Made by a program: the position numbers and the translations under genes. From a virus (Duplodnaviria > Caudoviricetes): a stretch of 64,000 nucleotides of DNA. The notes under the pieces were generated by a model. That model did not search any database. It was given only the letters and a program-made list of their open reading frames with translations, and was not told where the DNA came from. This document shows, one piece after another, positions 8,669 to 41,498 of the stretch; the first letter of the stretch is position 1; every line of letters starts with the position of its first letter. The DNA lies in the IMG/VR virus record IMGVR_UViG_3300014208_000024, positions 308,284-372,283 of that record; one strand, given 5' to 3'.

Positions 8669-8782
8669 AACTTTTGGTTTTAATTGGTTTATGGATCTAT
8701 AAAGCAAATAAAAATAAAAAGTGGGAACGTACCACTTTATTAAATAATTTGCTTTATATACTCAACCAATAACTTTAACACT

Positions 8783-9223
8783 ATGGATAATTACGAAAAA
8801 TCAAACAGTATTGAGGCTTTGCCCAATGTAAAATTTTCAAGTACAAAAACTCTTTTTTCTTATATGAGGGAAAAAGGCGTGGTAACTCAAGACGACTTGC
8901 AAAGAGTAGCAGACGCTATATGCAATGATTTAAAAGTATCAAAGGTAAATATTATCTTTGGGGGCGTACAAAACAATACAAGGGTAAATGGCAAACTCAA
9001 ATCAAAAACTCTCGGTACTTATAACACAGGGTCAACAAACATAAGAATTTTTCAATTTACTGCTGTAAAAAAACAGGCGGTTGCCACGAAAACAACCTTT
9101 GACACCTTGCTTCACGAATTAATGCACCATTTCGACTATAAGATATTAAATTTACAACAGTCAATTCATTCGGGGGGCTTTTACAAAAGAATAGGAAATT
9201 TAAAAACTGCTTTGTTAAGTTAA
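8783..9223 (+). CDS. SprT-like zincin metallopeptidase-domain protein
   Basis: TLLHELMHH (HExxH) with downstream H; class-A promoter. Confidence 0.7.
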   Translation: MDNYEKSNSIEALPNVKFSSTKTLFSYMREKGVVTQDDLQRVADAICNDLKVSKVNIIFGGVQNNTRVNGKLKSKTLGTYNTGSTNIRIFQFTAVKKQAVATKTTFDTLLHELMHHFDYKILNLQQSIHSGGFYKRIGNLKTALLS

Positions 9224-9367
9224 GGGAAAGGGGGCAACCCCTTTTTTTATTTTCTTTTTTTTAATTTCTGTTTTGTAGTAAACCAATAGACAAAAATACA
9301 AAAAGGTCAATTCCCACTTTTTCAGAAAATTTGCTTTATATACTCACCAACCAACCAAACCAAAAAT

Positions 9368-9673
9368 ATGAAAACAATCGTAACGCCTTTCGAGCAGGCA
9401 CAGGAAGCTGTCCGCAATGGAAAACTGACAACCCCAACAGTTGTTGCAGAGGGAAAACAAATCGATTATTTCGGTTATCAGATCAGTGTTCACAGGTTTA
9501 ATCTGAGAATAATGGCAGGGGATATGAAATTCAGGGGCGTCAAATTAAGAGATTTAAAGAATTATTACGGTCTGACAGGTCGCAGTGCAAGTGAATGCCT
9601 TGCACAGTTTGAAAATGTAGTAGCGGACTATCGCAGGCGGTTCAATCTACTGCAATCAGTAAACAAAAATTAA
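9368..9673 (+). CDS. Hypothetical protein
   Basis: ORF behind class-A promoter; ends at terminator. Confidence 0.75.
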   Translation: MKTIVTPFEQAQEAVRNGKLTTPTVVAEGKQIDYFGYQISVHRFNLRIMAGDMKFRGVKLRDLKNYYGLTGRSASECLAQFENVVADYRRRFNLLQSVNKN

Positions 9674-9965
9674 AAGGTGTGAAAGCCGAAAAAAGGGGGT
9701 GTGAAAGCCCTCTTTTATTTTTTTTTTAATTTTTTAAATTTCGGTATTGTCGTAAACCAACAAGCCAAACATCCAAAAATGGCAATTCCCACTTTTCCAG
9801 AAAATTTGCTTTATATAGTCACGTTCTTTCGGTAGTTAAAAAAAGCGATCACAGGGAAACAAAAAATTCCCACTTTTTCAGAAAATTCGCTTTATATACT
9901 CACAAGCTCTTTGACATACTGAAATCAGAAAAAATAAAGTTACCAAACCATAAAAAACAAAAATT

Positions 9966-10523
9966 ATGAAAGCTACTACATTATTACAGTTAATCGAAAG
10001 TTTCGATTTTTCAGGTGTGTCCTTTATTTCGATAAAAGGATATTGTTCAGACGAAAGTGAAAACAGCGAAATCGCTGATGTTGTTGTGAATGTTGGTGCG
10101 TCTTATGGAAATATGAAAGATGCCGATTTGATTACCCTTCAGGGTGCAGATGTTTCAAAACTTGCTTCAGACAATTTTGGTTTTGCAATTCTTGAACAGG
10201 CTGTAAAAGAAAAAATTCAGTCAATTATTGCACCAAACGAAAACCGTTCAAACGGTCAAAAAGATGCCTACATCAACCTTAACCCCAAAGGTACTCTGAA
10301 ATATTGCAAATCTACGGGCAGTGTTTTGATACAGGGTACGGTTGTTCGTAAAACTGTGATTAAAGAGGGTATTTTCAAAACAACAAATTCACGCCCTTTA
10401 ACCCTTGCAAAAAAACATATTGACAAGGTTCTTGATCTGAAAGTCGCAAAAATGCGATATTACAAAATTGCAAATATCACACGAAATGTAAAAGTTTCAG
10501 GTGATTGTATCGAAATCGAATAA
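9966..10523 (+). CDS. Hypothetical protein
   Basis: ORF behind class-A promoter; ends at terminator. Confidence 0.8.
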   Translation: MKATTLLQLIESFDFSGVSFISIKGYCSDESENSEIADVVVNVGASYGNMKDADLITLQGADVSKLASDNFGFAILEQAVKEKIQSIIAPNENRSNGQKDAYINLNPKGTLKYCKSTGSVLIQGTVVRKTVIKEGIFKTTNSRPLTLAKKHIDKVLDLKVAKMRYYKIANITRNVKVSGDCIEIE

Positions 10524-10863
10524 CGAAAGAAAACGATCAGGGAGAGGGGGGCAGGTTGCCCCTCTTTTTTTTTCTTTTTTTTTAAAAACCTTTCCCTGAT
10601 ATGGTGGTTTACGAGCAAACCGAAATTTAAAAAAAAGTTTTTAAAAACTTTCCCTGACATAAACTTTCCCTTGCGTTTCCCTGTATATAGAAAACGTTCC
10701 CTTTAAAACGGTTTTTAGGCTATTTTACAGGCTTTTTTTTATTACTGAATGATATTTGATATGTTTCCCCGATCAAAACGCTTTAAAATGCTTTAAAATG
10801 TTTCCCCAAAAACGTTCCCTCTTTTTCAATTTATTTGCTTTATATATTTTAAATAATTTAATT

Positions 10864-11517
10864 ATGAAATTAGATTTTTCAGGTCGCATAAATACTGATT
10901 ATACAAAGGTTTCCCTTACTCGCTCTTTTAAATATAAGGGCGGTTTTATTTCACCTAAGAGATTAAAAAACGGCAATGAAAAATTACATCATTGTTTTGT
11001 TTTCGATTTACCTGCTGTATTAAGTTGTCCTAATTGTAAAGGTTGCAAAGATAGTTGCTACGCTTTACAGGCACAAATGCAATATCCCGATGTAAGAGTT
11101 TTCAGGCATACAAATTTACATCTTGCTGTTTTTAATATAAGCAAGTTAAAAGAGTTAATTTGTTCACAATTGCAGACATCACGAACAAACATTGTTCGCA
11201 TACATGGTAGCGGTGATTTTTTCAGTCAACAGTATGTGGATATGTGGCTCGAAATAATTAAAATGTTTCCTGATAAAAAGTTTTACGCTTATACAAAAGC
11301 TGAGAAATTATTTACCTTTAAAAAATTATCAAACTTTAACCTTATTACATCGTTTATAGGGGGCAAATTGAATTACGGTGACATTGATTATTGCAACAGT
11401 TTAAAAGATCGTTATAACGCTTTTATTTGCCCTTGCGGAATTGATAAAACTGTTAAATGTGGAATTGATTGTAATTATTGTATAACGAATAAAAAGGTTT
11501 GTTTTTTGAAACATTAA
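10864..11517 (+). CDS. GP88-like (radical-SAM-related) phage protein
   Basis: FDLPAVLSCPxCxxCxxSCYA, RIHGSGDF and FYAYTK motifs typical of the phage GP88 family; likely start MKLDF. Confidence 0.7.
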   Translation: MKLDFSGRINTDYTKVSLTRSFKYKGGFISPKRLKNGNEKLHHCFVFDLPAVLSCPNCKGCKDSCYALQAQMQYPDVRVFRHTNLHLAVFNISKLKELICSQLQTSRTNIVRIHGSGDFFSQQYVDMWLEIIKMFPDKKFYAYTKAEKLFTFKKLSNFNLITSFIGGKLNYGDIDYCNSLKDRYNAFICPCGIDKTVKCGIDCNYCITNKKVCFLKH

Positions 11518-11797
11518 ACCTTTCTCACTTTCCCAGAAAATTTGCTTTATATATCCATGAGAAAATAAATAAACAAACCAAAAAGGAATTTAAAATGCGA
11601 AAGTAAGTTTGTCTTTTCCTCTTAGTAATATTAAAATAGTAACTCGCACTCACAAGGTGCGGGAAAAACGTTTTTTATTTTGTTTTTTTAAATTTCTGTT
11701 TTGTCGTAAACCAATTACAAAAAACTCCATAACTCTTTTTCCCTCTTTTTCATTTTATTTGCTTTATATATTCACAAACCAATTAAAACCAAAAGCT

Positions 11798-12034
11798 ATG
11801 AGTTTAACAATTCACATACAGGCAAAGTCCAAAAAAGAGATCAATGAAAAATTGGCTCAGGGTAAAAAAGTTTACGGAGAAAGTTATTCATTATTTGGCG
11901 GTGGTGGTACGTATGAATTGAACAAAGATTTGCCCACAGGTACGGTAATTAAAATCTTTGAGAAATATGTATCGGGCAACCCGTTTGTAAAATCTTATGG
12001 TACGTGGGCTGCGAGTAAAAACAAGGTGATATAA
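11798..12034 (+). CDS. Hypothetical protein
   Basis: Start MSLTI behind class-A promoter. Confidence 0.75.
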   Translation: MSLTIHIQAKSKKEINEKLAQGKKVYGESYSLFGGGGTYELNKDLPTGTVIKIFEKYVSGNPFVKSYGTWAASKNKVI

Positions 12035-12096
12035 AAATTCCCACTTTCCCAGAAAATTTGCTTTATATCTTTATAAACCAATTAAAACTGACAATC

Positions 12097-12381
12097 ATGA
12101 AAAGATCAATAGGTTTCAAAAGGAGTGAGGAAAGAGAAATTGAAGTTTCAAACAATTCTTTACCTGCCACAAATGAAGATCGTCCCAGTGAAATTTCCGT
12201 ACCAATGAGTTCTGCTCAGGTTGATCTACTTGAAACGATTCAAAACCTGTCTGAAATAATTGTGGACAAAAGTTTTGCAAAGTTTGCAGAAAACCAAAGA
12301 GTTTTATTTATTAAACAGCTTATCAATGCAGTTTCATTAAATTCTGAACTGACAACAAAAACAGCTATGCTGATGGTTTAA
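12097..12381 (+). CDS. Hypothetical protein
   Basis: Start MKRSI behind class-A promoter. Confidence 0.7.
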   Translation: MKRSIGFKRSEEREIEVSNNSLPATNEDRPSEISVPMSSAQVDLLETIQNLSEIIVDKSFAKFAENQRVLFIKQLINAVSLNSELTTKTAMLMV

Positions 12382-12875
12382 TCCCACTTTTTGAAATAAT
12401 TTGCTTTATACAGACATAAGAAATTGCCCGAAACAAATAATACTACAAATCATGAATAGAATAAGAGAACCCGATGTAAGTAAAAAAATTTATTTAGAAT
12501 TTATAAAACAATCCGTTGATCAAAAACTTTCGTAAAAAAGCAAAAAGGTATGCCGAGAATAAGATGCCCGAATAGGATAAAAACCCACTGAAAATTAACA
12601 AGAGTATTAACCCTAAATGAAAAATAGTATGATAAGAGCCTCTCCGAAATAAGCACATCTAATAATCTATAATATATAATAATCCGATTAAAACCCCTAC
12701 CCGTTTATATTTGGGCGGGGGTTTCTTTTTTTTATTTCTTTTTTTTAAATTTCTGTTTTGTCGTAAACCCTCCCTTTGAAACTTTCCCCAACCTTTCCCT
12801 GTTTTCCCCAGAGTTTTCCCACTTTTTCTTTTTATTTGCTTTATATACTTGTCAAACCAATTAAAACCAAAGATC

Positions 12876-13067
12876 ATGTCAAAAACAAAAAAATTCCACA
12901 AGCCGTCAAAAAGTGAAGTTGACGAAATGTATCTGAAAGCAAACCGCAAAGGTAGCAGACAGGCAGAACTTGAAAACGCCACAGGTTTTACCTCAAATCA
13001 CAAAGCACACAAAAGTAAAAAAGATTACAACAGAAAACCAAAGCACAAAGGAAGTTGGGATTGTTAA
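12876..13067 (+). CDS. Small basic protein
   Basis: Start MSKTKK behind class-A promoter; HKSKKDYNRKPKHK motif. Confidence 0.7.
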   Translation: MSKTKKFHKPSKSEVDEMYLKANRKGSRQAELENATGFTSNHKAHKSKKDYNRKPKHKGSWDC

Positions 13068-13122
13068 TCCCACTTTTATTTTTTATTTGCTTTATATAAT
13101 CACAAACCAAAAACAAAAACCA

Positions 13123-13455
13123 ATGAAAAGCATATTTGTAAAATTCGGGAACATGAGAGGTGAAGCGCAAGATTTTACCCTGTATCCGTACAATGGTGGT
13201 GATACGATTGTAATTCAATCAGACAAAAGAATTGCACAGATCAATCTGAAAACAGGTGAAACGATACTGAGCAAACAGGTTCAGGGCGGGGCTTATTTCA
13301 TGCACTTAAACGCATTTTTAGGGGCAACAGTTTGCCAATTTCCAAAAGATGAACTGATAAAAATTCAGGAATATTTGTGGAACAATGCAGGTGAAAAAAT
13401 TCATGGAGGTATTTTGATCACAGAAGACAAACCACTATTTTCAGTAAAATTATAA
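13123..13455 (+). CDS. Hypothetical protein
   Basis: Start MKSIF behind class-A promoter. Confidence 0.75.
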   Translation: MKSIFVKFGNMRGEAQDFTLYPYNGGDTIVIQSDKRIAQINLKTGETILSKQVQGGAYFMHLNAFLGATVCQFPKDELIKIQEYLWNNAGEKIHGGILITEDKPLFSVKL

Positions 13456-13524
13456 AAGAGGGGGCTTTCCCTCTTTTCCAGATAATTTGCTTTATATATT
13501 TACAAACCAATTAAAACCAAAAAG

Positions 13525-13881
13525 ATGAAAAAATCATTAGCATTATTAGCAAAAGGGTTTGAAAGCTCATGTTCAACCACACCCGAATTTGCCCAGTTTT
13601 TTCGCACCTTTAAAAGCGAATTTACAAAAGAACTTCAAAGCATTGGGGCAACCAAAATCGAAATGAACAGGGGTCATTTTTACCTGTCAGGTTTTTTTAC
13701 AAAAGGTGAAAAGATTTTCTATTTTTCTCTTTCCGATGTAAGAGGTTCAGACTTTGTTTTGGGCAGTGGTGGTGATCTTGATCTACTTTACAGAACTGCA
13801 AAACACTACAAAGATTGGTCAGGGGGTACAAATTGTTATGTAATAATCGAGGCGGGAATGGCTCAAAAAATGAGGTTATAA
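13525..13881 (+). CDS. Hypothetical protein
   Basis: ORF behind class-A promoter. Confidence 0.75.
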   Translation: MKKSLALLAKGFESSCSTTPEFAQFFRTFKSEFTKELQSIGATKIEMNRGHFYLSGFFTKGEKIFYFSLSDVRGSDFVLGSGGDLDLLYRTAKHYKDWSGGTNCYVIIEAGMAQKMRL

Positions 13882-13949
13882 AAAAGAGGGAACTTTCCCT
13901 CTTTTCTTTTTTATTTGCTTTATATATTTATAAACCAAAACTAATTTTT

Positions 13950-14174
13950 ATGAAAACAAATATTTTAAAATACAGTTTATACCTCATTTTTGTTTTAGCT
14001 TTAATTTCTAAAGTTGACGGTTGGGGTGCAATTCTTTCAGCAGTAAAAGAGTTTTCGTCTTTTGTTTTATTTATGGCAGTTATCATCGCCTTTGTTGTTT
14101 TGCTTTATATAATGTTCAACAAATCAAAATCTCTCAAACGTTTTGTTGACGACAAAGATAATGAACTGAAATGA
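13950..14174 (+). CDS. Small membrane protein
   Basis: Two hydrophobic segments; class-A promoter. Confidence 0.7.
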   Translation: MKTNILKYSLYLIFVLALISKVDGWGAILSAVKEFSSFVLFMAVIIAFVVLLYIMFNKSKSLKRFVDDKDNELK

Positions 14175-14238
14175 TCGTTTCCCACTTTTCAAAGAAATTT
14201 GCTTTATATAATCACAAACCAATTAAAAACCAAAAATC

Positions 14239-14583
14239 ATGAAAAAAGCAAACATAGTATTTAATGACCAGAGAATACCATCGGAATATCTGAACACAAT
14301 TCTCGTTGAAAATGTTAAAGATCTCATAAGCGCCCACAATTTTGTATTTGGATCTACATTCAGCGATTTTGCAAAAAAAGCATTAACAGGACTTAAAAAA
14401 ACAAGCGATATAACATTCAGGATTGAAAGTTTAATAAGGAATGAAAATCTTGCCCCTCAAACAAAAATCTGCTTTATAAATCAATTAAAAGCTGTCCTTT
14501 CGGGTAATTTTATCAGAATGAATAATGCAGGGGGTTACTTTGATTTTGACCCTAACAAAGCAACAATAACGAAATTAAAATAG
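14239..14583 (+). CDS. Hypothetical protein
   Basis: ORF behind class-A promoter; followed by terminator. Confidence 0.75.
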   Translation: MKKANIVFNDQRIPSEYLNTILVENVKDLISAHNFVFGSTFSDFAKKALTGLKKTSDITFRIESLIRNENLAPQTKICFINQLKAVLSGNFIRMNNAGGYFDFDPNKATITKLK

Positions 14584-14772
14584 GTTTTTTCATAGTTTAA
14601 TTGTTTAAATTGGTTTGAAGGGGGGCTGGTTACCTCCCTTTTTTTTATTTTCTTTTTTTAAATTTCGGTTTGGTCGTAAACCATACCTTTTTGATTTTTC
14701 ACCTGTGACTTCCCATGTTCCACTTTCTCAAATAATTTGCTTTATATACTCATAGCAAAAAACCATAAACAA

Positions 14773-15009
14773 ATGAAAACAATAGATAAAATTATAACCA
14801 AAGTAGATTGCAAATTCGGAGCGCCAATGGGAAGATATAATATAGGCAACAAGCCAACAAACAAAAGAGTTTTTGATTGTGCAGTCCCAATGAGTTGTGA
14901 CGGTGCTTATGATAAAGGTGGGGCATATTTTGGGATTGGAAAACAATTAAGAGTTGAGTACACAAAAGATTTATCTTATGTGAAATTTTACAGGAGGGGA
15001 GAAAAATAA
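14773..15009 (+). CDS. Hypothetical protein (GAPMGR family)
   Basis: CKFGAPMGR...YDKGGAYFG motif; class-A promoter. Confidence 0.75.
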   Translation: MKTIDKIITKVDCKFGAPMGRYNIGNKPTNKRVFDCAVPMSCDGAYDKGGAYFGIGKQLRVEYTKDLSYVKFYRRGEK

Positions 15010-15064
15010 TTCCCACTTTTCAAAGAAATTTGCTTTATATACTCATAACCAAAAACCAAAACCA

Positions 15065-15256
15065 ATGACAAAAGAAAAAACTTATACAGGTGCTTATAAA
15101 GTAGTTCAAATTTTCAGAGTTTCTAAAAGGCGTAAAACTTTAAAGCGTGGTTTAACAAAAGAAGAAGCAATGAGGGTTGTTAACAGATACCCCAACAGTT
15201 CTCGGAGTATGGTTGTATTTATGAAGCAATTTAGTGCTGATAAATATTTTGTTTAA
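15065..15256 (+). CDS. Hypothetical protein
   Basis: ORF behind class-A promoter. Confidence 0.7.
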   Translation: MTKEKTYTGAYKVVQIFRVSKRRKTLKRGLTKEEAMRVVNRYPNSSRSMVVFMKQFSADKYFV

Positions 15257-15281
15257 CGGTTGTATAATAAAAAACAATTAA

Positions 15282-15668
15282 ATGAGATTCATTCTAAGAC
15301 CATTTTGCATATTGATAGTAAAGTTTTTACAAAGAAGGTATAAACAAATAACTATTAAAAACAGGCACAATCAGACAAATCAGGTTTTATCAAAATTAAA
15401 ACTGATACAATCAATTTTATATTATTTTAAAAGTCAATTTCATGCTTGGGGTTATTTTCACCCCGATTGTGGATGGAGCGAAAAAGATGAATTTAAGTTT
15501 AGGAAACTGTTTCCTACAAAAGATTTTGAAGAGCTTGATTTAGTTGTTTTGCACAATCCTAATGCGATAACTTATTATCAGAATAGGATATATGACCTAA
15601 CAAACGGAAAGAGCGTTAAATCCAGCGATATTGAGAAACAGTTAAGAAAGTGGAATGATTGGAATTAA
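15282..15668 (+). CDS. Hypothetical protein
   Basis: ORF co-transcribed with previous gene. Confidence 0.65.
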   Translation: MRFILRPFCILIVKFLQRRYKQITIKNRHNQTNQVLSKLKLIQSILYYFKSQFHAWGYFHPDCGWSEKDEFKFRKLFPTKDFEELDLVVLHNPNAITYYQNRIYDLTNGKSVKSSDIEKQLRKWNDWN

Positions 15669-15720
15669 TCCCACTTTCTACAATAATTTGCTTTATATCC
15701 ACAACCAAAACCTTAAAATT

Positions 15721-15942
15721 ATGACTGAATTACAATTTATTCTTTTAGAAATTATTATTTTAATAATTATTTATCTTGGGTGTTTCTGTTTAATTTTTAA
15801 GTCAATGGTTTTTAATACAGCAGAAGAAGAAATTAAAAACATGAAAATAAGCAATATAGTTGCTTTGATAGTAGTTTCAATCTGTGTTATTTGTATTTAC
15901 ATAAATTATCCGACATTCCCAATTTCCCACTTTCCCCAATAA
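15721..15942 (+). CDS. Small membrane protein
   Basis: Two TM-like segments; class-A promoter. Confidence 0.7.
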   Translation: MTELQFILLEIIILIIIYLGCFCLIFKSMVFNTAEEEIKNMKISNIVALIVVSICVICIYINYPTFPISHFPQ

Positions 15943-15978
15943 TTTGCTTTATATATTCATAACCAAAAATCAAAAGTC

Positions 15979-16197
15979 ATGATAGAATATCGCAAAAGAT
16001 ACAGTGAATCAACCACACGTTCAACTTCACCCATAACAAAAAAGGGTCAGGCAATAACTGTTCGCAAAGGAAAAAAGAAATTTAAAGTTATAATCACGCA
16101 CCCGAATTATGCTGGAAGCAATATAACTGAGGGGGATGCAAACGGAAAACATTATGTATGTTGGTTCAATTATGGTTCATGGTCTGTATCTAATTAA
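15979..16197 (+). CDS. Hypothetical protein
   Basis: ORF behind class-A promoter. Confidence 0.7.
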   Translation: MIEYRKRYSESTTRSTSPITKKGQAITVRKGKKKFKVIITHPNYAGSNITEGDANGKHYVCWFNYGSWSVSN

Positions 16198-16251
16198 TTC
16201 CCACTTTTTATTTTAATTTGCTTTATATATCCATAACCAAAAATAAAAGCC

Positions 16252-16488
16252 ATGCAATTAACTAAAGAAGAAAAAACAAATATATTCTGGTCGTTGCTTA
16301 AAGAATATCCCGAATTTGAAAGGAGCCGTAAACAAATGCCTTTAATTTTTAAAGGAGAAGAAAAAATATCAAAAATGATTAAAATCATTAATGATGGAGA
16401 AAAAAAAGCTTATGATTTGATCAAAAAGTTTGCTGATGAAATTGGAGAAAATATACCCGAATACAAGAATCCAAATTTGAGGGGGTAA
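16252..16488 (+). CDS. Hypothetical protein
   Basis: ORF behind class-A promoter. Confidence 0.7.
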   Translation: MQLTKEEKTNIFWSLLKEYPEFERSRKQMPLIFKGEEKISKMIKIINDGEKKAYDLIKKFADEIGENIPEYKNPNLRG

Positions 16489-16548
16489 TAATATTCCCAC
16501 TTTCCCAGGAAATTTGCTTTATATATCCATAACCAAAAAATAAAAGCC

Positions 16549-16974
16549 ATGCCAAAATTTGAATTAAGATCAAACCAGTACATTCCTTATCGTGGAAAAA
16601 GATTACAAAGTGGGATGCCTGCCAGTGCTACATACTTTTATTTCGTAAATGAAAACGGAAAAGTTGTGGACTTACAAACATTAAAACCATATAAGGGAAA
16701 ACAAATGAATCGTTATGCAATGCACGATAAAAAAGAGGCAAATTCTTTTCTTAAATTGATTAATAAAACTACAACTCACAAAGTTGAAAAGCCAAAGGGT
16801 ACTTTTTATTCTGATTATACCATAAAAGGTGATTGCTGTTATGCAATATTTGAAAACTGTGATGGAAGGGTTAATACAAAATTAGTTTGCAAAACAAAAA
16901 AAACGAATGACGATTGGAAAACTTTTAATATAAAGGAAACAAAAAGGAATTTATTTATAAATCTGGGAGAATAA
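16549..16974 (+). CDS. Hypothetical protein
   Basis: ORF behind class-A promoter. Confidence 0.7.
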   Translation: MPKFELRSNQYIPYRGKRLQSGMPASATYFYFVNENGKVVDLQTLKPYKGKQMNRYAMHDKKEANSFLKLINKTTTHKVEKPKGTFYSDYTIKGDCCYAIFENCDGRVNTKLVCKTKKTNDDWKTFNIKETKRNLFINLGE

Positions 16975-17027
16975 ACTCTCCCACTTTTCTTTTTTATTTG
17001 CTTTATATATTCACAAACCGCAAAGCT

Positions 17028-17405
17028 ATGTATAAAGTTTACAGATATGAAAGCCCTTATGATCAAACGGGGGTTTTTAATTGTAGCCTTTCAAAATTTC
17101 CTGATAAATACAAAGTTTCAAAATTGTGTGATAAAATTCATGGAGATCATATCGGAAATAAAGATCACCCCACTTTACAAACTGACGGGTTAGATTTTGC
17201 ACTTGAAATGACTGGGTTTTTATGTGCTTGTAATAGCATAAAAGAATTATTGAATTGGTTTGATAAATACAATAAAAAACTTATTAAAAGCGGTTTTGTA
17301 ATTGCTGAATATATTGTAATTGCAAAGTTTGACGGCAAATCTGGATTGCAATGTGTTTTCAATGAAAAGGCAATAATTGAAAGAAATGTTATTTCCACTT
17401 TTTAA
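17028..17405 (+). CDS. Hypothetical protein
   Basis: Start MYKVYRYE behind class-A promoter. Confidence 0.7.
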   Translation: MYKVYRYESPYDQTGVFNCSLSKFPDKYKVSKLCDKIHGDHIGNKDHPTLQTDGLDFALEMTGFLCACNSIKELLNWFDKYNKKLIKSGFVIAEYIVIAKFDGKSGLQCVFNEKAIIERNVISTF

Positions 17406-17448
17406 TAAAATTTGCTTTATATACTTATAACTTTAAAACCTTTCCCCA

Positions 17449-17718
17449 ATGAAAAAAACAATGTATTTAACGGTCAATGTTTCTGAAGGAAACGCTGAAC
17501 ATATTGGAACGATGAAAATTACATCGGCAGGTCAAATTGAAGGTAAATTAAAAGAAATGTTAGATTCACATTTTGATGCCAATGTTGAAGTTAAAAACGA
17601 TACACCGTTTCAATTAGAAGATTTTCTCTACGGCAGAACCGTTGAGCTTAAAGTGAAAGTTGATTCTGAAATAGACAGCATTGAAGAAATTATTATTCAG
17701 GAAACATGGTTATATTAA
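17449..17718 (+). CDS. Hypothetical acidic protein
   Basis: ORF behind class-A promoter. Confidence 0.7.
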   Translation: MKKTMYLTVNVSEGNAEHIGTMKITSAGQIEGKLKEMLDSHFDANVEVKNDTPFQLEDFLYGRTVELKVKVDSEIDSIEEIIIQETWLY

Positions 17719-17774
17719 ACTCCCACTTTCCCCAATAATTTGCTTTATATACTTATAAAACCAAAACTTTCCCA

Positions 17775-17930
17775 ATGGAAGAATTGAAAAAGAAAGTAAT
17801 TGCAAAGTTAATTACATACGGCAACAATGCAGAAGAAGTGAAAATTATGGTTGCAAAACACTTTGAATATGCTGCAAGTAATTATAAGACAGTGAAGACA
17901 ATTTGTGAATGTATCAGAACAATATATTAA
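17775..17930 (+). CDS. Small hypothetical protein (51 aa, not in ORF track)
   Basis: MEELKKKVIAKLITYG... directly behind class-A promoter. Confidence 0.65.
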   Translation: MEELKKKVIAKLITYGNNAEEVKIMVAKHFEYAASNYKTVKTICECIRTIY

Positions 17931-17949
17931 AACCTTAGAGCTTAACAAA

Positions 17950-18108
17950 ATGAATATAGAGAAAAGAAAAAAAAGCAATGCAGCTCACAAAGTTTTATCG
18001 CTAATGGATAAAGATTTTTCTTATGAAAAAGCTTTGAGAAAAGTTTTAAAATCAGATAAAAGATTAAACAAAGTAAAGCTTGAAAAAGAACTGGACTTTT
18101 ATATTTAA
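17950..18108 (+). CDS. Small hypothetical protein
   Basis: Likely start MNIEKRKK. Confidence 0.55.
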   Translation: MNIEKRKKSNAAHKVLSLMDKDFSYEKALRKVLKSDKRLNKVKLEKELDFYI

Positions 18109-18166
18109 AACTCCCACTTTTATTTTTTATTTGCTTTATATATCCATAACCAAAAACCACAACAAA

Positions 18167-18376
18167 ATGAAAAAATTAAGAGTATTTGAATTTTCCCTTG
18201 ATGTTGACTATGGAGGTGGTATAATGTTAATCGCTGCCAAAGATACAGATCGTGCAATAGAATTGTGTCCAGTGCTTAGTCGTTTTCATGGTACTTGGGT
18301 ATATTCAGGTGAACATACAGAATTGTCCTATAAAGGAAAAGAGGGTGAAATTTTGAGTTTTACAAGAGTGGATTGA
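18167..18376 (+). CDS. Hypothetical protein
   Basis: Start MKKLRVF behind class-A promoter. Confidence 0.7.
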   Translation: MKKLRVFEFSLDVDYGGGIMLIAAKDTDRAIELCPVLSRFHGTWVYSGEHTELSYKGKEGEILSFTRVD

Positions 18377-18433
18377 ATTTCCACTTTTCCCAATAATTTG
18401 CTTTATATATCCATAACCAAAAACCACAACAAA

Positions 18434-18745
18434 ATGAAAAAAGATACTTACAAAACAGATGTGATTTTCAGAGTTCTCACTATTGGTGATATAACAGAAG
18501 TCACAGCATTGTTTCCTCATGATGTTGAAACGCCTGAAGGTCATATAAGCTGTTATGCTCACGTTGGTCAGCATGGGTCAGCAGATTACAGATATTGCGT
18601 ATCAAAAAGCCGTCTTGCCACAAAAGAAGAATACAGGGATCTCAAAAACGAACTTGAAAACGCTGTGGGATATAACCTGAATATTGTTCAAAAACAGAAC
18701 AGAACAAAATATCTGAAAAGTTATTACGAAACAAGAAAAAGATAA
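18434..18745 (+). CDS. Hypothetical protein
   Basis: VTALFP...SCYAHVGQHG motif; class-A promoter. Confidence 0.75.
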   Translation: MKKDTYKTDVIFRVLTIGDITEVTALFPHDVETPEGHISCYAHVGQHGSADYRYCVSKSRLATKEEYRDLKNELENAVGYNLNIVQKQNRTKYLKSYYETRKR

Positions 18746-18844
18746 TCTGGGTTCATATTGGTTTGGTTTGATCGGGGAGGAGTGGTTTCCTCCCCTCTTT
18801 TTTAAATAATTTGCTTTATATATTCATAACCAAAAATTAAACAA

Positions 18845-19300: not shown

Positions 19301-19408
19301 AAACCCTTTTTTATTTTCTTTTTTTAAATTTCTGTTTTGTCGTAAACCCATATACAAAATTCCCCCACAAGACAACTTCCCACTTTTTCAAATAATTTGC
19401 TTTATATA

Positions 19409-20090: not shown

Positions 20091-20091
20091 T

Positions 20092-30562: not shown

Positions 30563-30634
30563 GCCCTGTTCGTATAGAAGTCAGTACAACGGTTTTTCAA
30601 GCCGTAAAGGAGATAGCATAATTCTCACAGGGTA
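30563..30634 (+). tRNA. trnE: tRNA-Glu(TTC), atypical T arm
   Basis: Acceptor GCCCTGT/ACAGGGT; anticodon arm ACGGT-TTTTCAA-GCCGT; T arm GAGAT-AGCATAA-TTCTC. Confidence 0.8.
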
Positions 30635-30723: not shown

Positions 30724-31848
30724 TTATTTTACAACTAATAACTTATAACGTAAACCATTATAAGTCGAAGAACAACTTAAAGAACAAAATTTACTTTTTG
30801 TTTCTTTTCCACATTGCAAACAATTATTCATCTTTTTTTGCTTACCTGAAAAATTTCTTAAATTAGCTGCTCTCCCCGAACATTCCCTACTACAATAATC
30901 GTTTTTTGCAGGCTTACCACAAACTTTACATATATTTTTCTTTTCATTATATGGATTTCCTTCGTATAGTTTTACAAAATCACTTCCGTAAGTTTCTTTT
31001 ACATATTTAAAAATCTCCCCCAGGTCTTTTTTAAACAACACTCTAAGTTTATGCGGAAAACTCTTAAATTTAGCATCATCATTTTTTCTTTTAAATCCTT
31101 TTATTTCGTAGTAAATTTCTTCTTTAATAAAATCAGGGTAATACTTATGAGTTTCCCCTTCGTAAAAATAATCAAACCCCTCAGTATTTCTTTTAAATTC
31201 AATTTTATGATCAATATTGTAAATTATCCAAGCAAGCTCATAGCTGCTTCCACAATAAAATCCTTTATACCATCCGCTCTTACTGCGTCCAGATCCTTCT
31301 CTAATTCCTCCTCCACCACATTTTCTAAACTCTGCATTTTTATCATTATTATAGCATTCTTTAGAACAATATATTTTTTTAGTTTTACAAGGTAAAACTT
31401 TAAATTCCTTTTTACATATAGGACATTCTTTTTTTATTAATTCCCTCTCTGAAATTTTTCGTCTTACCTTAAAGTTTTTTATTCTTGACTCTTTTGCTTT
31501 TTCAGAATTTTTAATAGATTTACTAATATTTTCTTTTGTTTCTTTTGTTTGTTTTCTGCTATGTGCACAAAAAGAAGAACAAAACTTTTTTTCATCTTTC
31601 CCAGAAACTGTTTCAAATTCTTTATTACATTTGGGGCATGTTTTTTTAATTACTTTATTTTTTAATTTTTCACTGGCACATATAACAGAGCAATAATTTC
31701 CATTAGCAAGGTATTTCGGACTTAAAATAGTAGACTTAATATAATGTTTAGTTTTATAAAAAGTTTTACCACACTCTAAACATTCAATTGGTAACAAGTC
31801 ATTAGACTTAGCTAAATTTAGTTCTTCATCTGTAAATAGTTGTTTCAT
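30724..31848 (-). CDS. Homing-endonuclease-like protein (PD-(D/E)XK core with CxxC..CSxxC zinc fingers)
   Basis: KYYPDFIKEEIYYEIKG motif; multiple C.xC...YCS..C units; antisense and immediately 3' of the tRNA cluster. Confidence 0.75.
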   Translation of the reverse strand: MKQLFTDEELNLAKSNDLLPIECLECGKTFYKTKHYIKSTILSPKYLANGNYCSVICASEKLKNKVIKKTCPKCNKEFETVSGKDEKKFCSSFCAHSRKQTKETKENISKSIKNSEKAKESRIKNFKVRRKISERELIKKECPICKKEFKVLPCKTKKIYCSKECYNNDKNAEFRKCGGGGIREGSGRSKSGWYKGFYCGSSYELAWIIYNIDHKIEFKRNTEGFDYFYEGETHKYYPDFIKEEIYYEIKGFKRKNDDAKFKSFPHKLRVLFKKDLGEIFKYVKETYGSDFVKLYEGNPYNEKKNICKVCGKPAKNDYCSRECSGRAANLRNFSGKQKKMNNCLQCGKETKSKFCSLSCSSTYNGLRYKLLVVK

Positions 31849-32330: not shown

Positions 32331-32338
32331 TTTAAAAA

Positions 32339-32418
32339 GGGTGATTAACATTAATGCAAGAACAGTATTCTTGAAATAGAAGTAACGCTGCGTGTGGGTT
32401 CGATTCCCACATCACCCA
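32339..32418 (+). ncRNA. tRNA-like element (intact acceptor stem and T arm, degenerate D and anticodon arms)
   Basis: GGGTGAT/ATCACCC-A acceptor; GTGGG-TTCGATT-CCCAC T arm; CTTGAAA loop and ACG-CTG-CGT variable arm resemble tRNA-Ser(TGA). Confidence 0.6.
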
Positions 32419-34737: not shown

Positions 34738-34798
34738 ATTCCCACTTTTTTAAATAATTTGCTTTATATAGTTGTTAGATAAATTAAAACTTAAGAAA

Positions 34799-35425
34799 AT
34801 GAAAGACGTAAAAGAGATGAGTAAGAGTGCAATAGCCGATTTGGAATTGGTTAACGCCATCAAAAGTGAAGACAAAAGAAAATCAGAAAAGGCTTTTTCT
34901 CTGCTGTTTAAAAAATACCATGATACTATGCTGTTTCACTTCAGGGGATTGGTAAAAGATGAAGAAGATGCAAAAGAAATTGTTCTCGAAGCTTTTGTAA
35001 AAGTAAGTTCAAACATTGAAAAATTCAATCAGGATTCCGCTGTGTTCAGCACATGGTTATTCAGACTTACACAGAATCTTTTCATCGATAAACTGAGAAA
35101 GAAAAAAGATGATGTTGTTTCTCTTAGCGACATGGCTACATATGACGAAGATAGCCATACTTTCGAGTTCGACTTTGAAGATTGTGATGGAACTCCTGAA
35201 TCTAAAATACTGGATTCAGAAAAAGAAAGAAGAGTAAATGAAGTTCTTTCAAAAATGGAAAATCAGGAACTTGCCGAAATGATAAAAATGAGATATTTCC
35301 AAGGTCTGTCATACGAAGAAATCTCTAATGTTACGGGTAAACCTTTGGGAACTATAAAAGCTTTTATCTTCAGAGCAAAACAATTTCTGAAAAAAGACCT
35401 TAAAAGAGCTAAATTAAATTTTTAA
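34799..35425 (+). CDS. ECF (sigma-70 group 4) RNA polymerase sigma factor
   Basis: Region 2 AFSLLFKKY...DAKEIVLEAF...FSTWLFRL..N..ID..RK; region 4 MRYFQGLSYEEIS..TGKPLGTIKAFIFRAK. Confidence 0.9.
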   Translation: MKDVKEMSKSAIADLELVNAIKSEDKRKSEKAFSLLFKKYHDTMLFHFRGLVKDEEDAKEIVLEAFVKVSSNIEKFNQDSAVFSTWLFRLTQNLFIDKLRKKKDDVVSLSDMATYDEDSHTFEFDFEDCDGTPESKILDSEKERRVNEVLSKMENQELAEMIKMRYFQGLSYEEISNVTGKPLGTIKAFIFRAKQFLKKDLKRAKLNF

Positions 35426-35493: not shown

Positions 35494-36000
35494 ATGGTAC
35501 CACAACAAGCAGGCCGTCCCCTCACTCCAGCAGAAAAGAAACAATATCTTTTGGCCAAATACACAAAGAGAGACTACAATGTAGGTGATTTAGAAAGTTG
35601 TAAAAAATATGCAGTATATTTTTGTCCAAATTTGGAACTTGTAAAAGAATGGAAATTATTACATGTATGTGGGAATCTGAATGAAGCAAAACAACAGATT
35701 TTTTGGAGAAAACAATACATGAGTACAAAGGATGGGGATTTAATTATAGATAATTGTGAAGATTTTAAGACATGGAGAGATGAAACAAAAAATGTTGACT
35801 CTAACGGGAATGCTTATGAGCCAGGAGAAGAATTAATGAAAATTGATTATAATGCTCCAGGAAATATGATTCAGGTAATAGCAAGTTCGACTCCAGCTCA
35901 ACAAAATTCTAATGGATTCAAAGGATTTGGGTTTTATACAGGAATTGAGATTGGAAATTATCAAGGTTTTTATAAAATTGAGGAAATTTACGAAGTATAG
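35494..36000 (+). CDS. Hypothetical protein (TATTTAT promoter)
   Basis: Likely start MVPQQ behind TATTTATT. Confidence 0.7.
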   Translation: MVPQQAGRPLTPAEKKQYLLAKYTKRDYNVGDLESCKKYAVYFCPNLELVKEWKLLHVCGNLNEAKQQIFWRKQYMSTKDGDLIIDNCEDFKTWRDETKNVDSNGNAYEPGEELMKIDYNAPGNMIQVIASSTPAQQNSNGFKGFGFYTGIEIGNYQGFYKIEEIYEV

Positions 36001-37518: not shown

Positions 37519-37635
37519 ATTTCGGTTTGCTCGTAAACCCCACAGTAAATCCACAAATCCAAAACTCCCACTTTTTCAAATAATTTGCTTTATATACTCA
37601 CATAAACTAAATATTAACAATTTAAATTTAAAAAA

Positions 37636-38475
37636 ATGGTACGTGAATTAAGTGAAAAAATAGGCTGGGAAATTGAAAGTAAAAATATTTTCTCAGGAGA
37701 TCAAATAGGTCTCGAAAAAATTTTAGGGTACAAAGCTGTTACTCGTAATGATAACGGAGGAGTTCTCTCAGTTATGAAAAAATCTTATTCCCCCATGACC
37801 AACACAGAGTTTTTAGAAGTGGTTTCAAAAATTCAAGAAATATCTGGATTTAAACTTGCAGGGTTTAATGAATTCAGACAAGGGAGGAAAGTTTTGGGGT
37901 TCCTTGAAAATGATAAAGAGGATTTATATATTGGAGGACATAAAATAAAAGATTATTTTTTAGTTGGAAACAGCTTTGATGGATCTACATCTTTCTTCCA
38001 AGGTACATCGACAATTCTAATCCGCTGTCAAAATCAGTTCAGCCAAATTAATGTAATGAACAAAATCCGCCATACGAAAAGTATAGGAAGAAAACTTGAA
38101 GAATTTTATTCCTACTTAGATTTTTATTTCAACAAAAGAAATGAATTATATAAAACTTTCGAGCAACTTGGAAATATTACCCTCACAGAAAATTTACGTG
38201 AAAATCTTATTAAAGCTGCCCTTGGAGTTAAAGAAGTTACTGACAAAGAAATATCAGCTCGTAAACAAAATCAAATCGACCTGCTGAGATCAACAATACT
38301 CGCAGAAACTTTGGAACTGGGCGAAAATATGTGGGGGGCATTTAATGGAGTTACAAAATATACAACCCACGAAATCGAAACAAAAAACCCCATCTTCGGA
38401 AATGTCTTCGGAAATCAGGCCGATATCAATAACAGAGCAATGGAATTTGCAACCAAAGAACTGGTAATGTCATAA
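37636..38475 (+). CDS. DUF932/DUF945-family protein
   Basis: KAVTRNDNG..LSV..KSY.P..N, NSFDGS, IRCQNQF, IRHT and NMWGAFNGVTKYTTH motifs. Confidence 0.8.
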   Translation: MVRELSEKIGWEIESKNIFSGDQIGLEKILGYKAVTRNDNGGVLSVMKKSYSPMTNTEFLEVVSKIQEISGFKLAGFNEFRQGRKVLGFLENDKEDLYIGGHKIKDYFLVGNSFDGSTSFFQGTSTILIRCQNQFSQINVMNKIRHTKSIGRKLEEFYSYLDFYFNKRNELYKTFEQLGNITLTENLRENLIKAALGVKEVTDKEISARKQNQIDLLRSTILAETLELGENMWGAFNGVTKYTTHEIETKNPIFGNVFGNQADINNRAMEFATKELVMS

Positions 38476-38538
38476 AGAAACTGGGGGAGGAAACTCTCCC
38501 CCACATTTTTTAAATGTTTAACTTAATAATTTATAATC

Positions 38539-38967
38539 ATGCATAAATCATTTGTAATTTTACTTTCGATTTTATTTAGCTTTATTATATTTGTAGACAT
38601 AGGAACTATTGCATCTATCGCATATAGAGATAATCAAAGAATCAATCAAGAAATAACTGTAAACAAAGACAGTTTCGAAGATCAATATCCCAGACTTGGA
38701 CCATTTATTACCATTGAAGATTTTATACATGTAGATAGTATTTATAAAGCAGAAATGGACAGGATAAATAAATTAAAAAACAAACCTTTTAAAATGATTA
38801 CAAAATGTAAATTTATTCCCGAAGTTGAATTTGTTGATTATGGAACATTCAAAGAAATAGATAGTCTTAAATGTATTCGACAAAAAGAAATGGAAAATCT
38901 TATCAAGCAAGAGAAAGAACAAGAAAAAGAACTTGATCTATTAAATAATAAACCCTGTAATAATTAA
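38539..38967 (+). CDS. Membrane-anchored hypothetical protein
   Basis: N-terminal TM helix. Confidence 0.65.
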   Translation: MHKSFVILLSILFSFIIFVDIGTIASIAYRDNQRINQEITVNKDSFEDQYPRLGPFITIEDFIHVDSIYKAEMDRINKLKNKPFKMITKCKFIPEVEFVDYGTFKEIDSLKCIRQKEMENLIKQEKEQEKELDLLNNKPCNN

Positions 38968-39049
38968 AAAGCCAAAGGGGGAGGAAACTCTCCCCATTTT
39001 TTTCTCTTTTTTTTTGCATATTTAATGGAAATTCAAAACACCATTATCT

Positions 39050-39286
39050 ATGAAACCAAAAGAAACATTTAAGGAAATGCTCACTCTTTGCTATGAAGAA
39101 GATTTCCCAGAATTACACAAAGAATTAATTTCACTTGAAAGTGAAACAAAAAAGATCAGAGACTCGTATAAGTATGAAAAAGCAATGGAGGAAATATTTA
39201 ATCTTATACCCCTATTTTCTGAAGACTTTCCCCAGGAAATAATGTTGCAACTGGAAAAACTATATGAAGATTGTATAGAAGAATAA
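39050..39286 (+). CDS. Hypothetical acidic protein
   Basis: ORF after terminator. Confidence 0.65.
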   Translation: MKPKETFKEMLTLCYEEDFPELHKELISLESETKKIRDSYKYEKAMEEIFNLIPLFSEDFPQEIMLQLEKLYEDCIEE

Positions 39287-39301
39287 CTTAATTTAAATAA
39301 A

Positions 39302-39904
39302 ATGAAAAAAATCTCTGGAGACGTTATCGCTCACCTCCTGTTTGGAGTGGCTGCAATTGGTTTATTAATCGGTGGAGCTATTATGCTAATAGCATCTTTC
39401 TTTACAGCTCTCCCTATATTTAATGCTTTTATCGTATTAACACTGGGAGCTATCCTATATGTGGGAGTTAGACTTTATTTTGTATTCGGCGATGTACTGG
39501 AATCTATAACTAAATTAATAGAAATTTCTTCCTCTCCCCAGATAAATAAGAACGGTAGAATATATAAAAATGGATTGTTAACAAAACAAATGGGATTTGG
39601 AGACCTGCCAACTCATGATCTATCAAAAATTCCACATCCTGCACCAGGATTAATTGATGAAATTCTTATTGATGAAAATACAACCCCAGAGGAAATTGAA
39701 AATATTAAAAAGAAATATCCTGGGTTCTCTCATGCAATTGATGAAATACTGGAAAAGGTTGGGGGGATTTCACGTACATCTACTTTACCCCTATCTTCTC
39801 TCTCTTCTTTTAAATTAGAAAAACTTCTTCAGGAAGCTATTGATAAAAATGATTTTGAAAGAGCTGCTGAAATAAGAGACGAAATTAATAGAAGGAATAA
39901 GTAA
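39302..39904 (+). CDS. Membrane protein with C-terminal UVR (UvrB/UvrC) motif
   Basis: Two N-terminal TM helices; LEKLLQEAIDKNDFERAAEIRDEI. Confidence 0.7.
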   Translation: MKKISGDVIAHLLFGVAAIGLLIGGAIMLIASFFTALPIFNAFIVLTLGAILYVGVRLYFVFGDVLESITKLIEISSSPQINKNGRIYKNGLLTKQMGFGDLPTHDLSKIPHPAPGLIDEILIDENTTPEEIENIKKKYPGFSHAIDEILEKVGGISRTSTLPLSSLSSFKLEKLLQEAIDKNDFERAAEIRDEINRRNK

Positions 39905-40071
39905 CCTTTTAAAAATTAATCCGTATAAGATAGTAAGAGTAATTTATATAACAAGTTGTATCTACTAATCGCATGATTAAAACCCCACACCCAAAATTTG
40001 CTGGGGTTTTTTTATTCCCACTTTTTAAAATAATTTGCTTTATATAGTTATTGTTAAAAAAAACTAAAGCT

Positions 40072-40242
40072 ATGTTTGAAAAACTAATCTGGAAACTGTT
40101 TAAAATGAACAGGAATGATTTCAATAAGGCAGATAAGAAAATTGAAAAGATACTGCTTGAAGTTTATGAAAAAGGTAAAAAGGATGGCAAAAAAGAAATG
40201 TCAAAATTAATGTCGATATTAGTTAAAAAAACAATATTATGA
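40072..40242 (+). CDS. Small hypothetical protein
   Basis: Start MFEKL behind class-A promoter. Confidence 0.65.
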   Translation: MFEKLIWKLFKMNRNDFNKADKKIEKILLEVYEKGKKDGKKEMSKLMSILVKKTIL

Positions 40243-40628
40243 AATTAGAAATTAAGCAATACAAATATGAAAAAATAGAGGTGTCATCAAAAGAAATTGA
40301 ATTGCCAACTGAAACCTCTTACTTTTTTCAAACTGGAATAAGACGTTCAATAAAAATAACTCCACGTTTTACAACTTGGAATAAAAAACACTATAATAAA
40401 GAAGAAGAGTTATATGAACTTATAGTTGTTTGTTTATACCAAAATTTTGAATGTAAAGCAGAAAAGTTCAGCTTAAGAGTTAATGAATTAGAAAATATTT
40501 ATTATTCTGAAAAAGACGAAAATAAAGAATTTGTAACTGCATTGATTGATGGTTGTTTTAATAAAAGAACTAAAGAACAATTTGATGCTGATTTTAAACA
40601 CATATTTTCAGAAATGCAGTGTCTTTAA
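40239..40628 (+). CDS. Hypothetical protein
   Basis: ATGA overlap with previous gene. Confidence 0.7.
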   Translation: MKLEIKQYKYEKIEVSSKEIELPTETSYFFQTGIRRSIKITPRFTTWNKKHYNKEEELYELIVVCLYQNFECKAEKFSLRVNELENIYYSEKDENKEFVTALIDGCFNKRTKEQFDADFKHIFSEMQCL

Positions 40629-40629
40629 A

Positions 40630-41160
40630 ATGAAAAAATTTCTCCTGTTCATATTCAATTTATTCAATAAGAAATCTCTGGAGCCCCCAAAACCAGAACT
40701 CATCGTCATTAGCAAAAAATCAAATAGCGGAAGTACAATACAAAACCATTTTGTCTATACAGCTGCAAACCCCAGTATTAAATCTCTGGCCGCTTCTGTG
40801 CTTCTTAAAAATGATCTTATGTTTCAAGATGTAGACTACCTGGAAGATGAACTTCATAAATGGCTCGAATTTCGTGAAAGATATCTATATAAACAACTGA
40901 TATTAAAAAAAGGTCTGATATGTACCTATTGTGGAAAACCCCACCTGGAAATCGGAGGTAGAACCCCCAAAGATATTATCGCTAATAACAAAAACCCAAA
41001 CCTGGCAACTATAGACCATATTACAGCGCTCGCTAATGGGGGATCAAAGTATGATGAAGATAATCTATGCGTTAGCTGTAAAAAATGCAACAGAAACAAA
41101 GGAACAACCCCAGTGGAAGAATTTAAAAGAAAATTAAATTTTAAAAATTTTAATCAATAG
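40630..41160 (+). CDS. HNH endonuclease
   Basis: CTYCG...TIDHITALANGG....DNLCVSCKKCNRNKG. Confidence 0.85.
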   Translation: MKKFLLFIFNLFNKKSLEPPKPELIVISKKSNSGSTIQNHFVYTAANPSIKSLAASVLLKNDLMFQDVDYLEDELHKWLEFRERYLYKQLILKKGLICTYCGKPHLEIGGRTPKDIIANNKNPNLATIDHITALANGGSKYDEDNLCVSCKKCNRNKGTTPVEEFKRKLNFKNFNQ

Positions 41161-41498
41161 TTGTAACCTTTTTTAATTTTTCTCGTATTAATAGGTAACT
41201 TGGATAACTTGGACGCCCGTCCTTAAACTATTCAAGTCTTTGTATTCTTTGTCTGTTTTATTTTTTAGAAACCCCTGAGCTTGTCCCTCTGGGGTTTCAG
41301 TTTTTTAAAAACTTTTTTTTAAATTTCGGTTCCGTCGTAAACCCCCACAAACAATCTCTTTTTCTATTTTTTATTTTTCTTTTTTTAAATTTCGGTTTGC
41401 TCGTAAACCCCCATAGTAAAACCCCCAATCTAAAATTCCCACTTTTTTAAAAAATTTGCTTTATATAACTTTTGCCTTTTTTCTGCGTATAAACCATT

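Follow-up and report, generated by a model that had tools for sequence, protein, structure and literature searches.

In T4-type phages, promoter-early stem-loop (PeSL) cassettes lie in hyperplastic regions of the genome (PMC2839356, PMC4122927). Here we describe a 33-kb array of small genes in the final 64 kb of a 372,283-bp IMG/VR record, IMGVR_UViG_3300014208_000024. This 64,000-nucleotide stretch is our window, the phage is referred to as G0, and positions are window coordinates unless marked genome. The array is built on a two-box module, class A, that is repeated before nearly every one of its genes. We propose that class A is a sigma-70-family promoter class private to the phage lineage, with a -35-like and a -10-like box, and we give this best explanation as a whole a probability of about 0.7. 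By analogy, its nearest known counterpart is the PeSL hyperplastic region, and the array appears to extend the PeSL principle to a new phage group, with a non-host-like promoter and on a larger scale. The original prediction, made from the letters of the window, had drawn the same analogy, and it is apt: the motif is composite, the genes are ORFans and the variation is cassette-wise (PMC2839356, PMC4122927).

The likeness to PeSL regions has several parts. In both, a composite terminator/promoter motif is repeated before ORFans and concentrated in variable regions, and the stem is made of a G-run and a C-run, with the C-run adjoining the promoter. Additionally, the gene content of relatives differs cassette by cassette, and the portal and terminase are T4-like. 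However, PeSL promoters have the host sigma-70 consensus, whereas class A matches neither the Bacteroidota nor the E. coli consensus. PeSL regions are several and scattered, whereas all class A copies of this phage stand in a single one-strand array. A stem is present in about a quarter of these copies, yet the C-rich box is invariant and keeps a fixed distance from the -10-like box. Mini-circles and mapped crossovers belong to the PeSL system; our case is built on sequence comparison.

Two other groups of systems are similar in part. The takeover modules of SPO1 and T5 and the early promoters of T4 also consist of dense, near-identical strong promoters before many small unknown genes; they use the host core polymerase, with phage sigma factors for later classes. 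Those promoters are of host sigma-A/sigma-70 type and have measured timing, and their place is in terminal repeats or in the DNA that enters first, whereas the class A consensus is not host-like. In phage sigma cascades (SPO1 gp28 then gp33/34; phiEco32 and 7-11 gp36, PMC8948821), a polymerase-less phage re-programmes the host core, every sigma recognises a promoter consensus of its own, and the sigma for a later class is encoded in an earlier one. The arrangement proposed below shares these traits, but it would combine an RpoD-like with a textbook extracytoplasmic function (ECF) sigma, and its largest regulon would consist not of middle or late essential genes but of a variable ORFan array.

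The class A module and its array

Allowing up to 3 mismatches to CCCWCTTT-N9-TTTGCTTTATATA, we found 58 matches in the window, versus 0.02 expected from shuffles. The original prediction had put the array at about 57 copies with none beyond its span, and both statements are confirmed: there is no copy outside the array in the whole 372,283-bp genome. The core 11-mer of the motif is the most frequent complex 11-mer genome-wide. A literature search with the motif string returned only unrelated vector sequences. The array and two instructive modules are as follows.

8696-41467, whole array: 57 motif copies on the plus strand (8731-41467) and 1 on the minus strand (8696-8725); about 70 small open reading frames (ORFs), median 104 aa; median unit 431 nt
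8696-8725 (minus) and 8731-8760 (plus), left edge: divergent module pair whose upstream boxes together form one inverted repeat
23417-23463, plus strand: full composite module, in which a hairpin 3' arm and T-run form the upstream box, followed by TTTGCTTTATATA; the ATG of a 316-aa ORF is 22 nt on

The module is about 45 bp long and consists, in order, of a CCCnCTTTT upstream box, a fixed 13-nt gap, a CTTTATATA box and an A/C-rich leader without a Shine-Dalgarno sequence. Its extended consensus, taken from the position profile, is tTCCCaCTTTTtcaaatAATTTGCTTTATATAnTCAtaAcCAAAAA. The conservation profile has two blocks, with an abrupt upstream edge before the first T and a decay through the leader. 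The box-to-box distance is N13 in 48 of 50 relaxed matches in G0. In this genome TTTG precedes the CTTTATATA box, and TATAnT can be read at motif positions 27-32, 16-17 nt past the T-run of the upstream box. The spacer had been described as constant in length and free in sequence; the first half of that description holds, and the second does not, as the 9-nt spacer is semi-conserved (consensus t-c-a-a-a-t-A-A). The semi-conserved TCAYAACCAA-like leader reported earlier is real, with the consensus nTCAtaAcCAAAAA and conservation up to the ATG. Measured to the first ATG with 30 or more codons behind it, the distance from TATATA is mostly 21-28 nt (median 23 nt).

Modules are packed closely against the genes before them. 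Among 56 modules, 31 overlap the preceding stop codon or begin within 10 nt of it, in line with the earlier observation that the motif often overlaps the previous stop. The further claim, that the motif often forms the 3' arm of a terminator, is true of the hairpin cited for it (23417-23444, -14.1 kcal/mol), but "often" was too strong: the upstream box is the 3' arm of a strong hairpin in only about 12-15 of 57 copies, and the rest have a C-rich arm with no partner. Terminator-like sites are enriched in the array (42 versus 11.4 +/- 3). At the left edge, the minus-strand copy precedes a 57-codon ORF that runs from 8667 down to 8495 and has a terminator at its end. Downstream of this divergent cassette, to the left of the array, are four overlapping GGGTCTAWTTAAGGGGTCTAA-type repeats (8372-8472).

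Five class A units have no credible ORF.

25068-25495, plus strand: class A module, a G+C-richer structured RNA of about 400 nt (25098-25495) and a terminator
19379-19600, plus strand: class A module and about 190 nt to a terminator; fold z = -1.3
9788-9868: further ORF-less class A unit
11524-11740: further ORF-less class A unit
12383-12817: further ORF-less class A unit

The RNA at 25098-25495 has a fold of -124.9 kcal/mol (z = -4.05 versus shuffles). It has no Rfam match at E up to 1, and blastn finds no copy in the related phages G1 and G2 or in the other loci introduced below. Three of the other four units have folds no better than shuffles (z = -1.3, -1.1 and +1.5).

Conservation and turnover among relatives

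To place the array in context, we used a related IMG/VR phage, G1 (290,886 bp), a 12.5-kb metagenome contig, L052, and two loci, L073 and L074, that were retrieved via homologues of the ECF sigma encoded in the array. Protein-level identity of the relatives is 50-70%; G0 and G1 have 207 of 498 proteins in common, with a mean identity of 62%. A megablast of 20 kb against GenBank phages gave no match, and near-identical DNA of the phage is present in the groundwater metagenomes of two studies.

The module is conserved in these sequences. G1 has 42-52 class A copies on one strand at 41-84 kb, L052 has at least 27 in its 12.5 kb, L073 has 10-16 and L074 has 4-5. In a further relative, G2 (229 kb, 82% complete), the array is absent and there are two isolated motif copies, but the contig stops before the region and is uninformative. 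The upstream box reads CCCACTTTT in G0, CCCTCTTTT in G1, L052 and L074, and CCCCCTTTT in L073, so that box position 4 is A, T or C depending on the lineage. The downstream core CTTTATATA is kept in the relatives, with CTTAATATA in L074. The N13 spacing is found in all five phage sequences, N12 being a minor form in G1, and the median leader of each is 22-30 nt.

The genes behind the module are far less conserved. A G1 homologue exists for 17 of 71 array ORFs versus 190 of 427 ORFs elsewhere (Fisher p = 0.001), which agrees with the earlier view of the region as one of gene gain and loss. The cassettes common to G0 and G1 are collinear save two, the GP88-family cassette and the ORF at 16549-16974, both of which are elsewhere in G1. 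At the distal side, the order of a 270-aa protein, the ECF sigma, a co-transcribed ORF, a DUF932 protein, a UVR-motif protein and an HNH endonuclease is kept in every relative seen. The cassettes concerned are listed here.

10817-11517, plus strand: GP88-family cassette, whose homologue has another relative position in the G1 array and in those of other relatives
34741-35425, plus strand: ECF cassette, a class A module and an ECF-type sigma gene (34799-35425, 208 aa)
35494-36000, plus strand: ORF after the ECF sigma gene, with no module of its own, which stays beside the sigma gene in relatives
37567-41160, plus strand: distal end, with the DUF932 protein (37636-38475), a UvrB/C-motif protein (39302-39904) and the HNH endonuclease (40549-41160)

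There are no paralogues among the cassette genes, and the only multi-copy genes in the array are two endonuclease-like insertions that have promoters of another class (class B, below). Because the cassette genes lack paralogues, the array has apparently not grown by gene duplication; the signal alone is repeated. The variable positions of the modules hold a second clue. Neighbouring modules are 0.586 alike versus 0.540 +/- 0.012 for random pairs, a value that 0 of 5000 permutations reach, and the likeness fades by lag 10. This pattern points to local copying or gene conversion. Based on these comparisons, the view of the array as a hypervariable ORFan region, in which the signal is conserved while most genes differ, is supported. 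The repeated modules would then act as homology patches where cassettes are gained, lost and moved, and the data are compatible with PeSL-type shuffling. We also looked at Logan contigs from two groundwater DNA runs over 10000-29999; the apparent joints in them, with sides of 20-43 nt, are assembly breaks at the repeat and carry no information on recombination.

Promoter-like classes and candidate sigma factors

K-mer enrichment upstream of genes outside the array separated three further promoter-like classes. Class D is of host type: the genome has 42 TTTG-N18-20-TAnnTTTG sites versus 7-16 in shuffles. These sites precede the genes for SSB, UvrD helicase, family A DNA polymerase (PolA), ClpB and PhoH, as well as a tRNA islet inside the array and a two-gene operon ending with an RpoD-like sigma gene. 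Class C is TGAAAC-N16-CGTAta. A spacer of exactly N16 is found at 11 sites and other spacings yield 0-2; in G1 and in G2 there are likewise 11 sites. In G0 the genome positions include 11442, 65697, 95749, 355320, 358946, 363830 and 364625, and the sites precede RtcB, NAPRTase, DUF3228, a KaiC-like ATPase and small ORFs. We take TGAAAC-N16-CGTA to be the textbook ECF consensus of the sigma-W type, and the best model match of the phage ECF protein is SigW. Class B, (A/C)TATTTATA with no -35 element, has about 90 copies genome-wide, 10-25 nt before start codons, and includes the terminase-portal block; in form it is similar to T4 late promoters.

Because its portal and terminase are T4-like, we place this phage, on its sequence, among the huge phages of the T4 superfamily. 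Its record is a linear one with no repeats at the ends, and has a G+C content of 28.7%. The portal and the large terminase subunit (genome 140349-146586) both contain inteins, with a LAGLIDADG domain inside that of the terminase, and the genome encodes DNA polymerase III alpha and a ribonucleotide reductase (RNR). The RNA polymerase domains Rpb2_6 and Rpb1_2 have no match in the genome. A DLDID motif that could have been a sign of an RNA polymerase belongs to a 1167-aa ORF that is DNA polymerase III alpha. Searches for T7-type polymerase and the MotA family were blank here but matched no control genome either, and are uninformative; homologues of T4 gp55 and gp45 were not detected by phmmer or jackhmmer. 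With no RNA polymerase domains detected, the phage probably relies on the host core polymerase. It encodes two sigma factors, the RpoD-like one (279 aa) outside the array and the ECF-type one (208 aa) inside it. The host is likely a member of the Bacteroidota or a related group, because Shine-Dalgarno sequences are missing from the leaders, TTTG/TAnnTTTG sites of host type are present, and the nearest cellular relatives of the RpoD-like sigma are found there.

Class A has the layout of a sigma-70-family promoter: two blocks, a fixed spacer (+/-1) and an A/T-rich downstream block with TAnnnT. The fixed distance between the blocks argues for one protein complex that contacts both of them on DNA, in the manner of sigma regions 4 and 2. 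The consensus has no TAnnTTTG at the distance expected for Bacteroidota sigma-A, and neither the AAC -35 nor the CGT -10 of ECF promoters. Matches to E. coli-type promoters in the array are at chance level, and among 401 Bacteroidota species genomes there is a single occurrence of the relaxed pattern CCCNCTTT-N13-CTTTATATA. Taken together, these data support class A as distinct from the three other promoter-like classes of the genome and not of host type. The array had been predicted to have a promoter class of its own, and the genome-wide uniqueness and sigma-70-like geometry of the module speak for it. Transcription by the host core RNA polymerase would begin a few nucleotides past TATATA and yield short-leader mRNAs, with one start per gene. 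Where a module has no hairpin, transcripts would probably read on and overlap; where it has one (about a quarter of copies), the upstream box doubles as the U-tract and 3' arm of the terminator that ends the gene before it.

Since class A is unlike the host-type promoters of the same genome, its recognition most likely needs a specificity factor supplied by the phage. The ECF sigma fits class C and not class A, which leaves the RpoD-like sigma or an unrecognised factor, and on sequence grounds the RpoD-like sigma is the best candidate. Its gene (genome 98736-99575) is in the two-gene operon at genome 98736-100160, which corresponds to 289150-290606 in G1, and the host-type promoter of this operon, TTG/TTTG-N20-TATTTTTG, is conserved in G1. 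The protein is 86% identical between G0 and G1, versus the genome-wide mean of 62% for common proteins. Its closest cellular relatives are primary sigmas of Bacteroidota and Gemmatimonadota (41-45% identity); "primary sigma factor" entries that are 56-60% identical are phage genes too, in the same RNR-sigma-UvrD neighbourhood. Compared with Bacteroidota sigmas, region 2.3-2.4 is kept and region 3.0 differs. Region 4.2 reads LTNERVRQIK versus the bacterial LTRERVRQIK, with Asn for Arg, and the substituted Arg corresponds to E. coli R584, a -35 contact. Two other leads were dropped. A weak sigma region-4 match at genome 34.5 kb is an HTH (helix-turn-helix)-HNH endonuclease, and TTTGCTTTA, which resembles a T4 MotA box, has the wrong spacing to the -10, with no MotA detectable.

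A relay that would connect these elements is possible, and we put it forward tentatively. Host sigma-A would make the phage sigma from class D, the phage sigma would read class A, and the ECF sigma of the array would read class C. With its altered -35-reading helix (Arg to Asn), the RpoD-like sigma alone would read CCCnCTTTT-N13-CTTTATATA and turn on the exchangeable 33-kb array, whose roughly 60 single-gene cassettes include the ECF sigma. The ECF sigma would then switch on a repair and NAD-salvage set that includes RtcB and NAPRTase. As the ECF sigma is encoded in the array and its textbook target stands before genes outside it, the array would be upstream in a sigma cascade; under the relay it would be a delayed-early class rather than the first.

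Several points weigh against these proposals. The promoter identity of the module is read from geometry, position and conservation, and the CCCnC box, invariant even without a hairpin, could bind some other protein. The sigma assignment draws on a single substituted residue and on co-occurrence in three phages, each of which has both sigmas; the RpoD-like sigma could just as well read the TATTTATA class or simply stand in for host sigma-A. Since the host is itself deduced, an unusual host sigma could be the reader. For recombination the evidence is indirect, consisting of cassette-level replacement, two transposed cassettes and the neighbour-likeness of modules, and breakpoints at the motif are nearly unavoidable because the intergenic space is almost wholly motif.

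Among other explanations, the best survivor is that class A copies are immediate-early promoters, read on DNA entry by host RNA polymerase that is either unmodified or altered by an injected protein, in the way of T4 early promoters and the SPO1 and T5 takeover regions. This corresponds to the first-expressed region of the original prediction. Small, unknown and variable genes in a dense one-strand layout match the early regions of large phages, with PeSL as a precedent (PMC2839356), and the module has TATAnT plus a T-run where a -33 element is expected. The array also carries the sigma gene for a later class and adjoins a 1.3-kb non-coding repeat region, a possible genome landmark. However, the sigma operon, the replication genes and the tRNAs, which one would expect to be early, already have promoters of the different-looking Bacteroidota type, T4 early promoters match the host consensus where class A does not, and a motif with a single relaxed occurrence in 401 Bacteroidota genomes would be an odd host signal. 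We consider this explanation unlikely.

Less probable still is a self-amplifying regulon in which class A is the cognate promoter of the array ECF sigma and another sigma reads GAAAC/CGTA. ECF sigma genes are usually autoregulated, and a class A module does precede the ECF gene in G0, L073 and L074. Nevertheless, class A lacks the AAC and CGT elements and has an A/T-only -10 typical of group 1-3 sigmas, the 11 exact TGAAAC-N16-CGTA sites and the SigW match already provide an ECF target, and a self-dependent regulon would need a separate trigger. We regard this as improbable. Finally, that the module is not a promoter but a processing or translation-enhancer site, a factor-dependent termination signal or a mobile cassette end is very improbable: the CCCnCTTTT box does double as a terminator arm in some copies, leader conservation does extend to the ATG and a second array-only repeat does exist, but two strictly spaced blocks with a semi-free spacer and a sharp upstream edge fit double-stranded DNA recognition by one complex, no recombinase or integrase is associated with the module, five copies have no following ORF, and these ORF-less units ending in terminators, together with a divergent copy that shares no upstream transcript, do not fit a processing site in one long transcript.

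Further features of the array and its meaning

A second repeat, AAATTTCKGTTTKSTCGTAAACC, is also confined to the array.

9262-41409: repeat AAATTTCKGTTTKSTCGTAAACC, 12 copies, at 9262, 9736, 10628 (minus strand), 11690, 12747, 14660, 19326, 22775, 26388, 37517, 41321 and 41387

Eleven of the 12 copies come after a T-rich tail, and nine of those 11 after a strong terminator hairpin. Ten copies are about 25-50 nt upstream of a class A box; the copy at 41321 precedes the next repeat copy, and the minus-strand copy at 10628 has no class A box. The repeat is also found in L052 and L074. As an anti-leader it is no better than shuffled sequence, with a duplex energy with the leaders of -5.55 versus -5.18 +/- 0.73.

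The motif had been said to precede nearly every gene or non-coding RNA in the array. The one-signal-per-gene layout holds, but three elements have promoters of other types.

30179-30634, plus strand: tRNA islet with a Bacteroidota-type promoter, TTTG-N19-TATCTTTG, and tRNA genes at 30342-30415 and 30563-30634
30724-31848, minus strand: 374-aa ORF with a class B (CTATTTATA) promoter, of a family dispersed across the genome
36580-37518, plus strand: DUF723/DUF4379 zinc-finger ORF with its own class B promoter and paralogues elsewhere in the genome

The first of the two ORFs is probably an inserted mobile gene and the second is probably an inserted homing-endonuclease-like gene. A tRNA-like sequence at 32339-32418 on the plus strand scores 29.8 bits, just over the Rfam threshold, and is not called by ARAGORN; its 3' end merges into the CCCA of the next class A module. 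Directly after the array is a non-coding stretch of about 1.3 kb with repeats (41780-43050). It contains many copies of TTCTCCCCA and a perfect 18-bp palindrome, TTGTTCCACGTGGAACAA, that is parS-like (42431-42448). Possible roles for this stretch are those of an origin, a partition site or a landmark for packaging.

For nearly all cassette genes, Pfam, PHROGs, NCBIfam and Atlas gave no function, and Atlas gave no lead for three conserved cassette proteins. Besides the ECF sigma, the family matches of array genes are to the GP88 family, DUF932, the SEC-C motif, the UVR motif and HNH. By analogy, the cassette genes may plausibly act in host takeover or anti-defence, as the original prediction supposed. 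The genes that most clearly resemble counter-defence genes are RtcB and NAPRTase, which lie outside the array and belong to class C.

Nearly all knowledge of huge phages comes from metagenomes, and their programmes of gene expression have yet to be charted. With four promoter-like classes that can be told apart and two sigma genes, this genome provides a testable wiring diagram for one of them, and the cassette genes delimit a set that can be searched for host-manipulating or counter-defence functions. If a phage sigma does read class A, the two together would make an orthogonal expression system for Bacteroidota that is ready for use. As an example of a portable promoter attached to every accessory gene, the array is unusually clean. 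If the relay is true, this private promoter would insulate the accessory genes from host regulation and would be a portable docking sequence, by which any captured gene is expressed at once.

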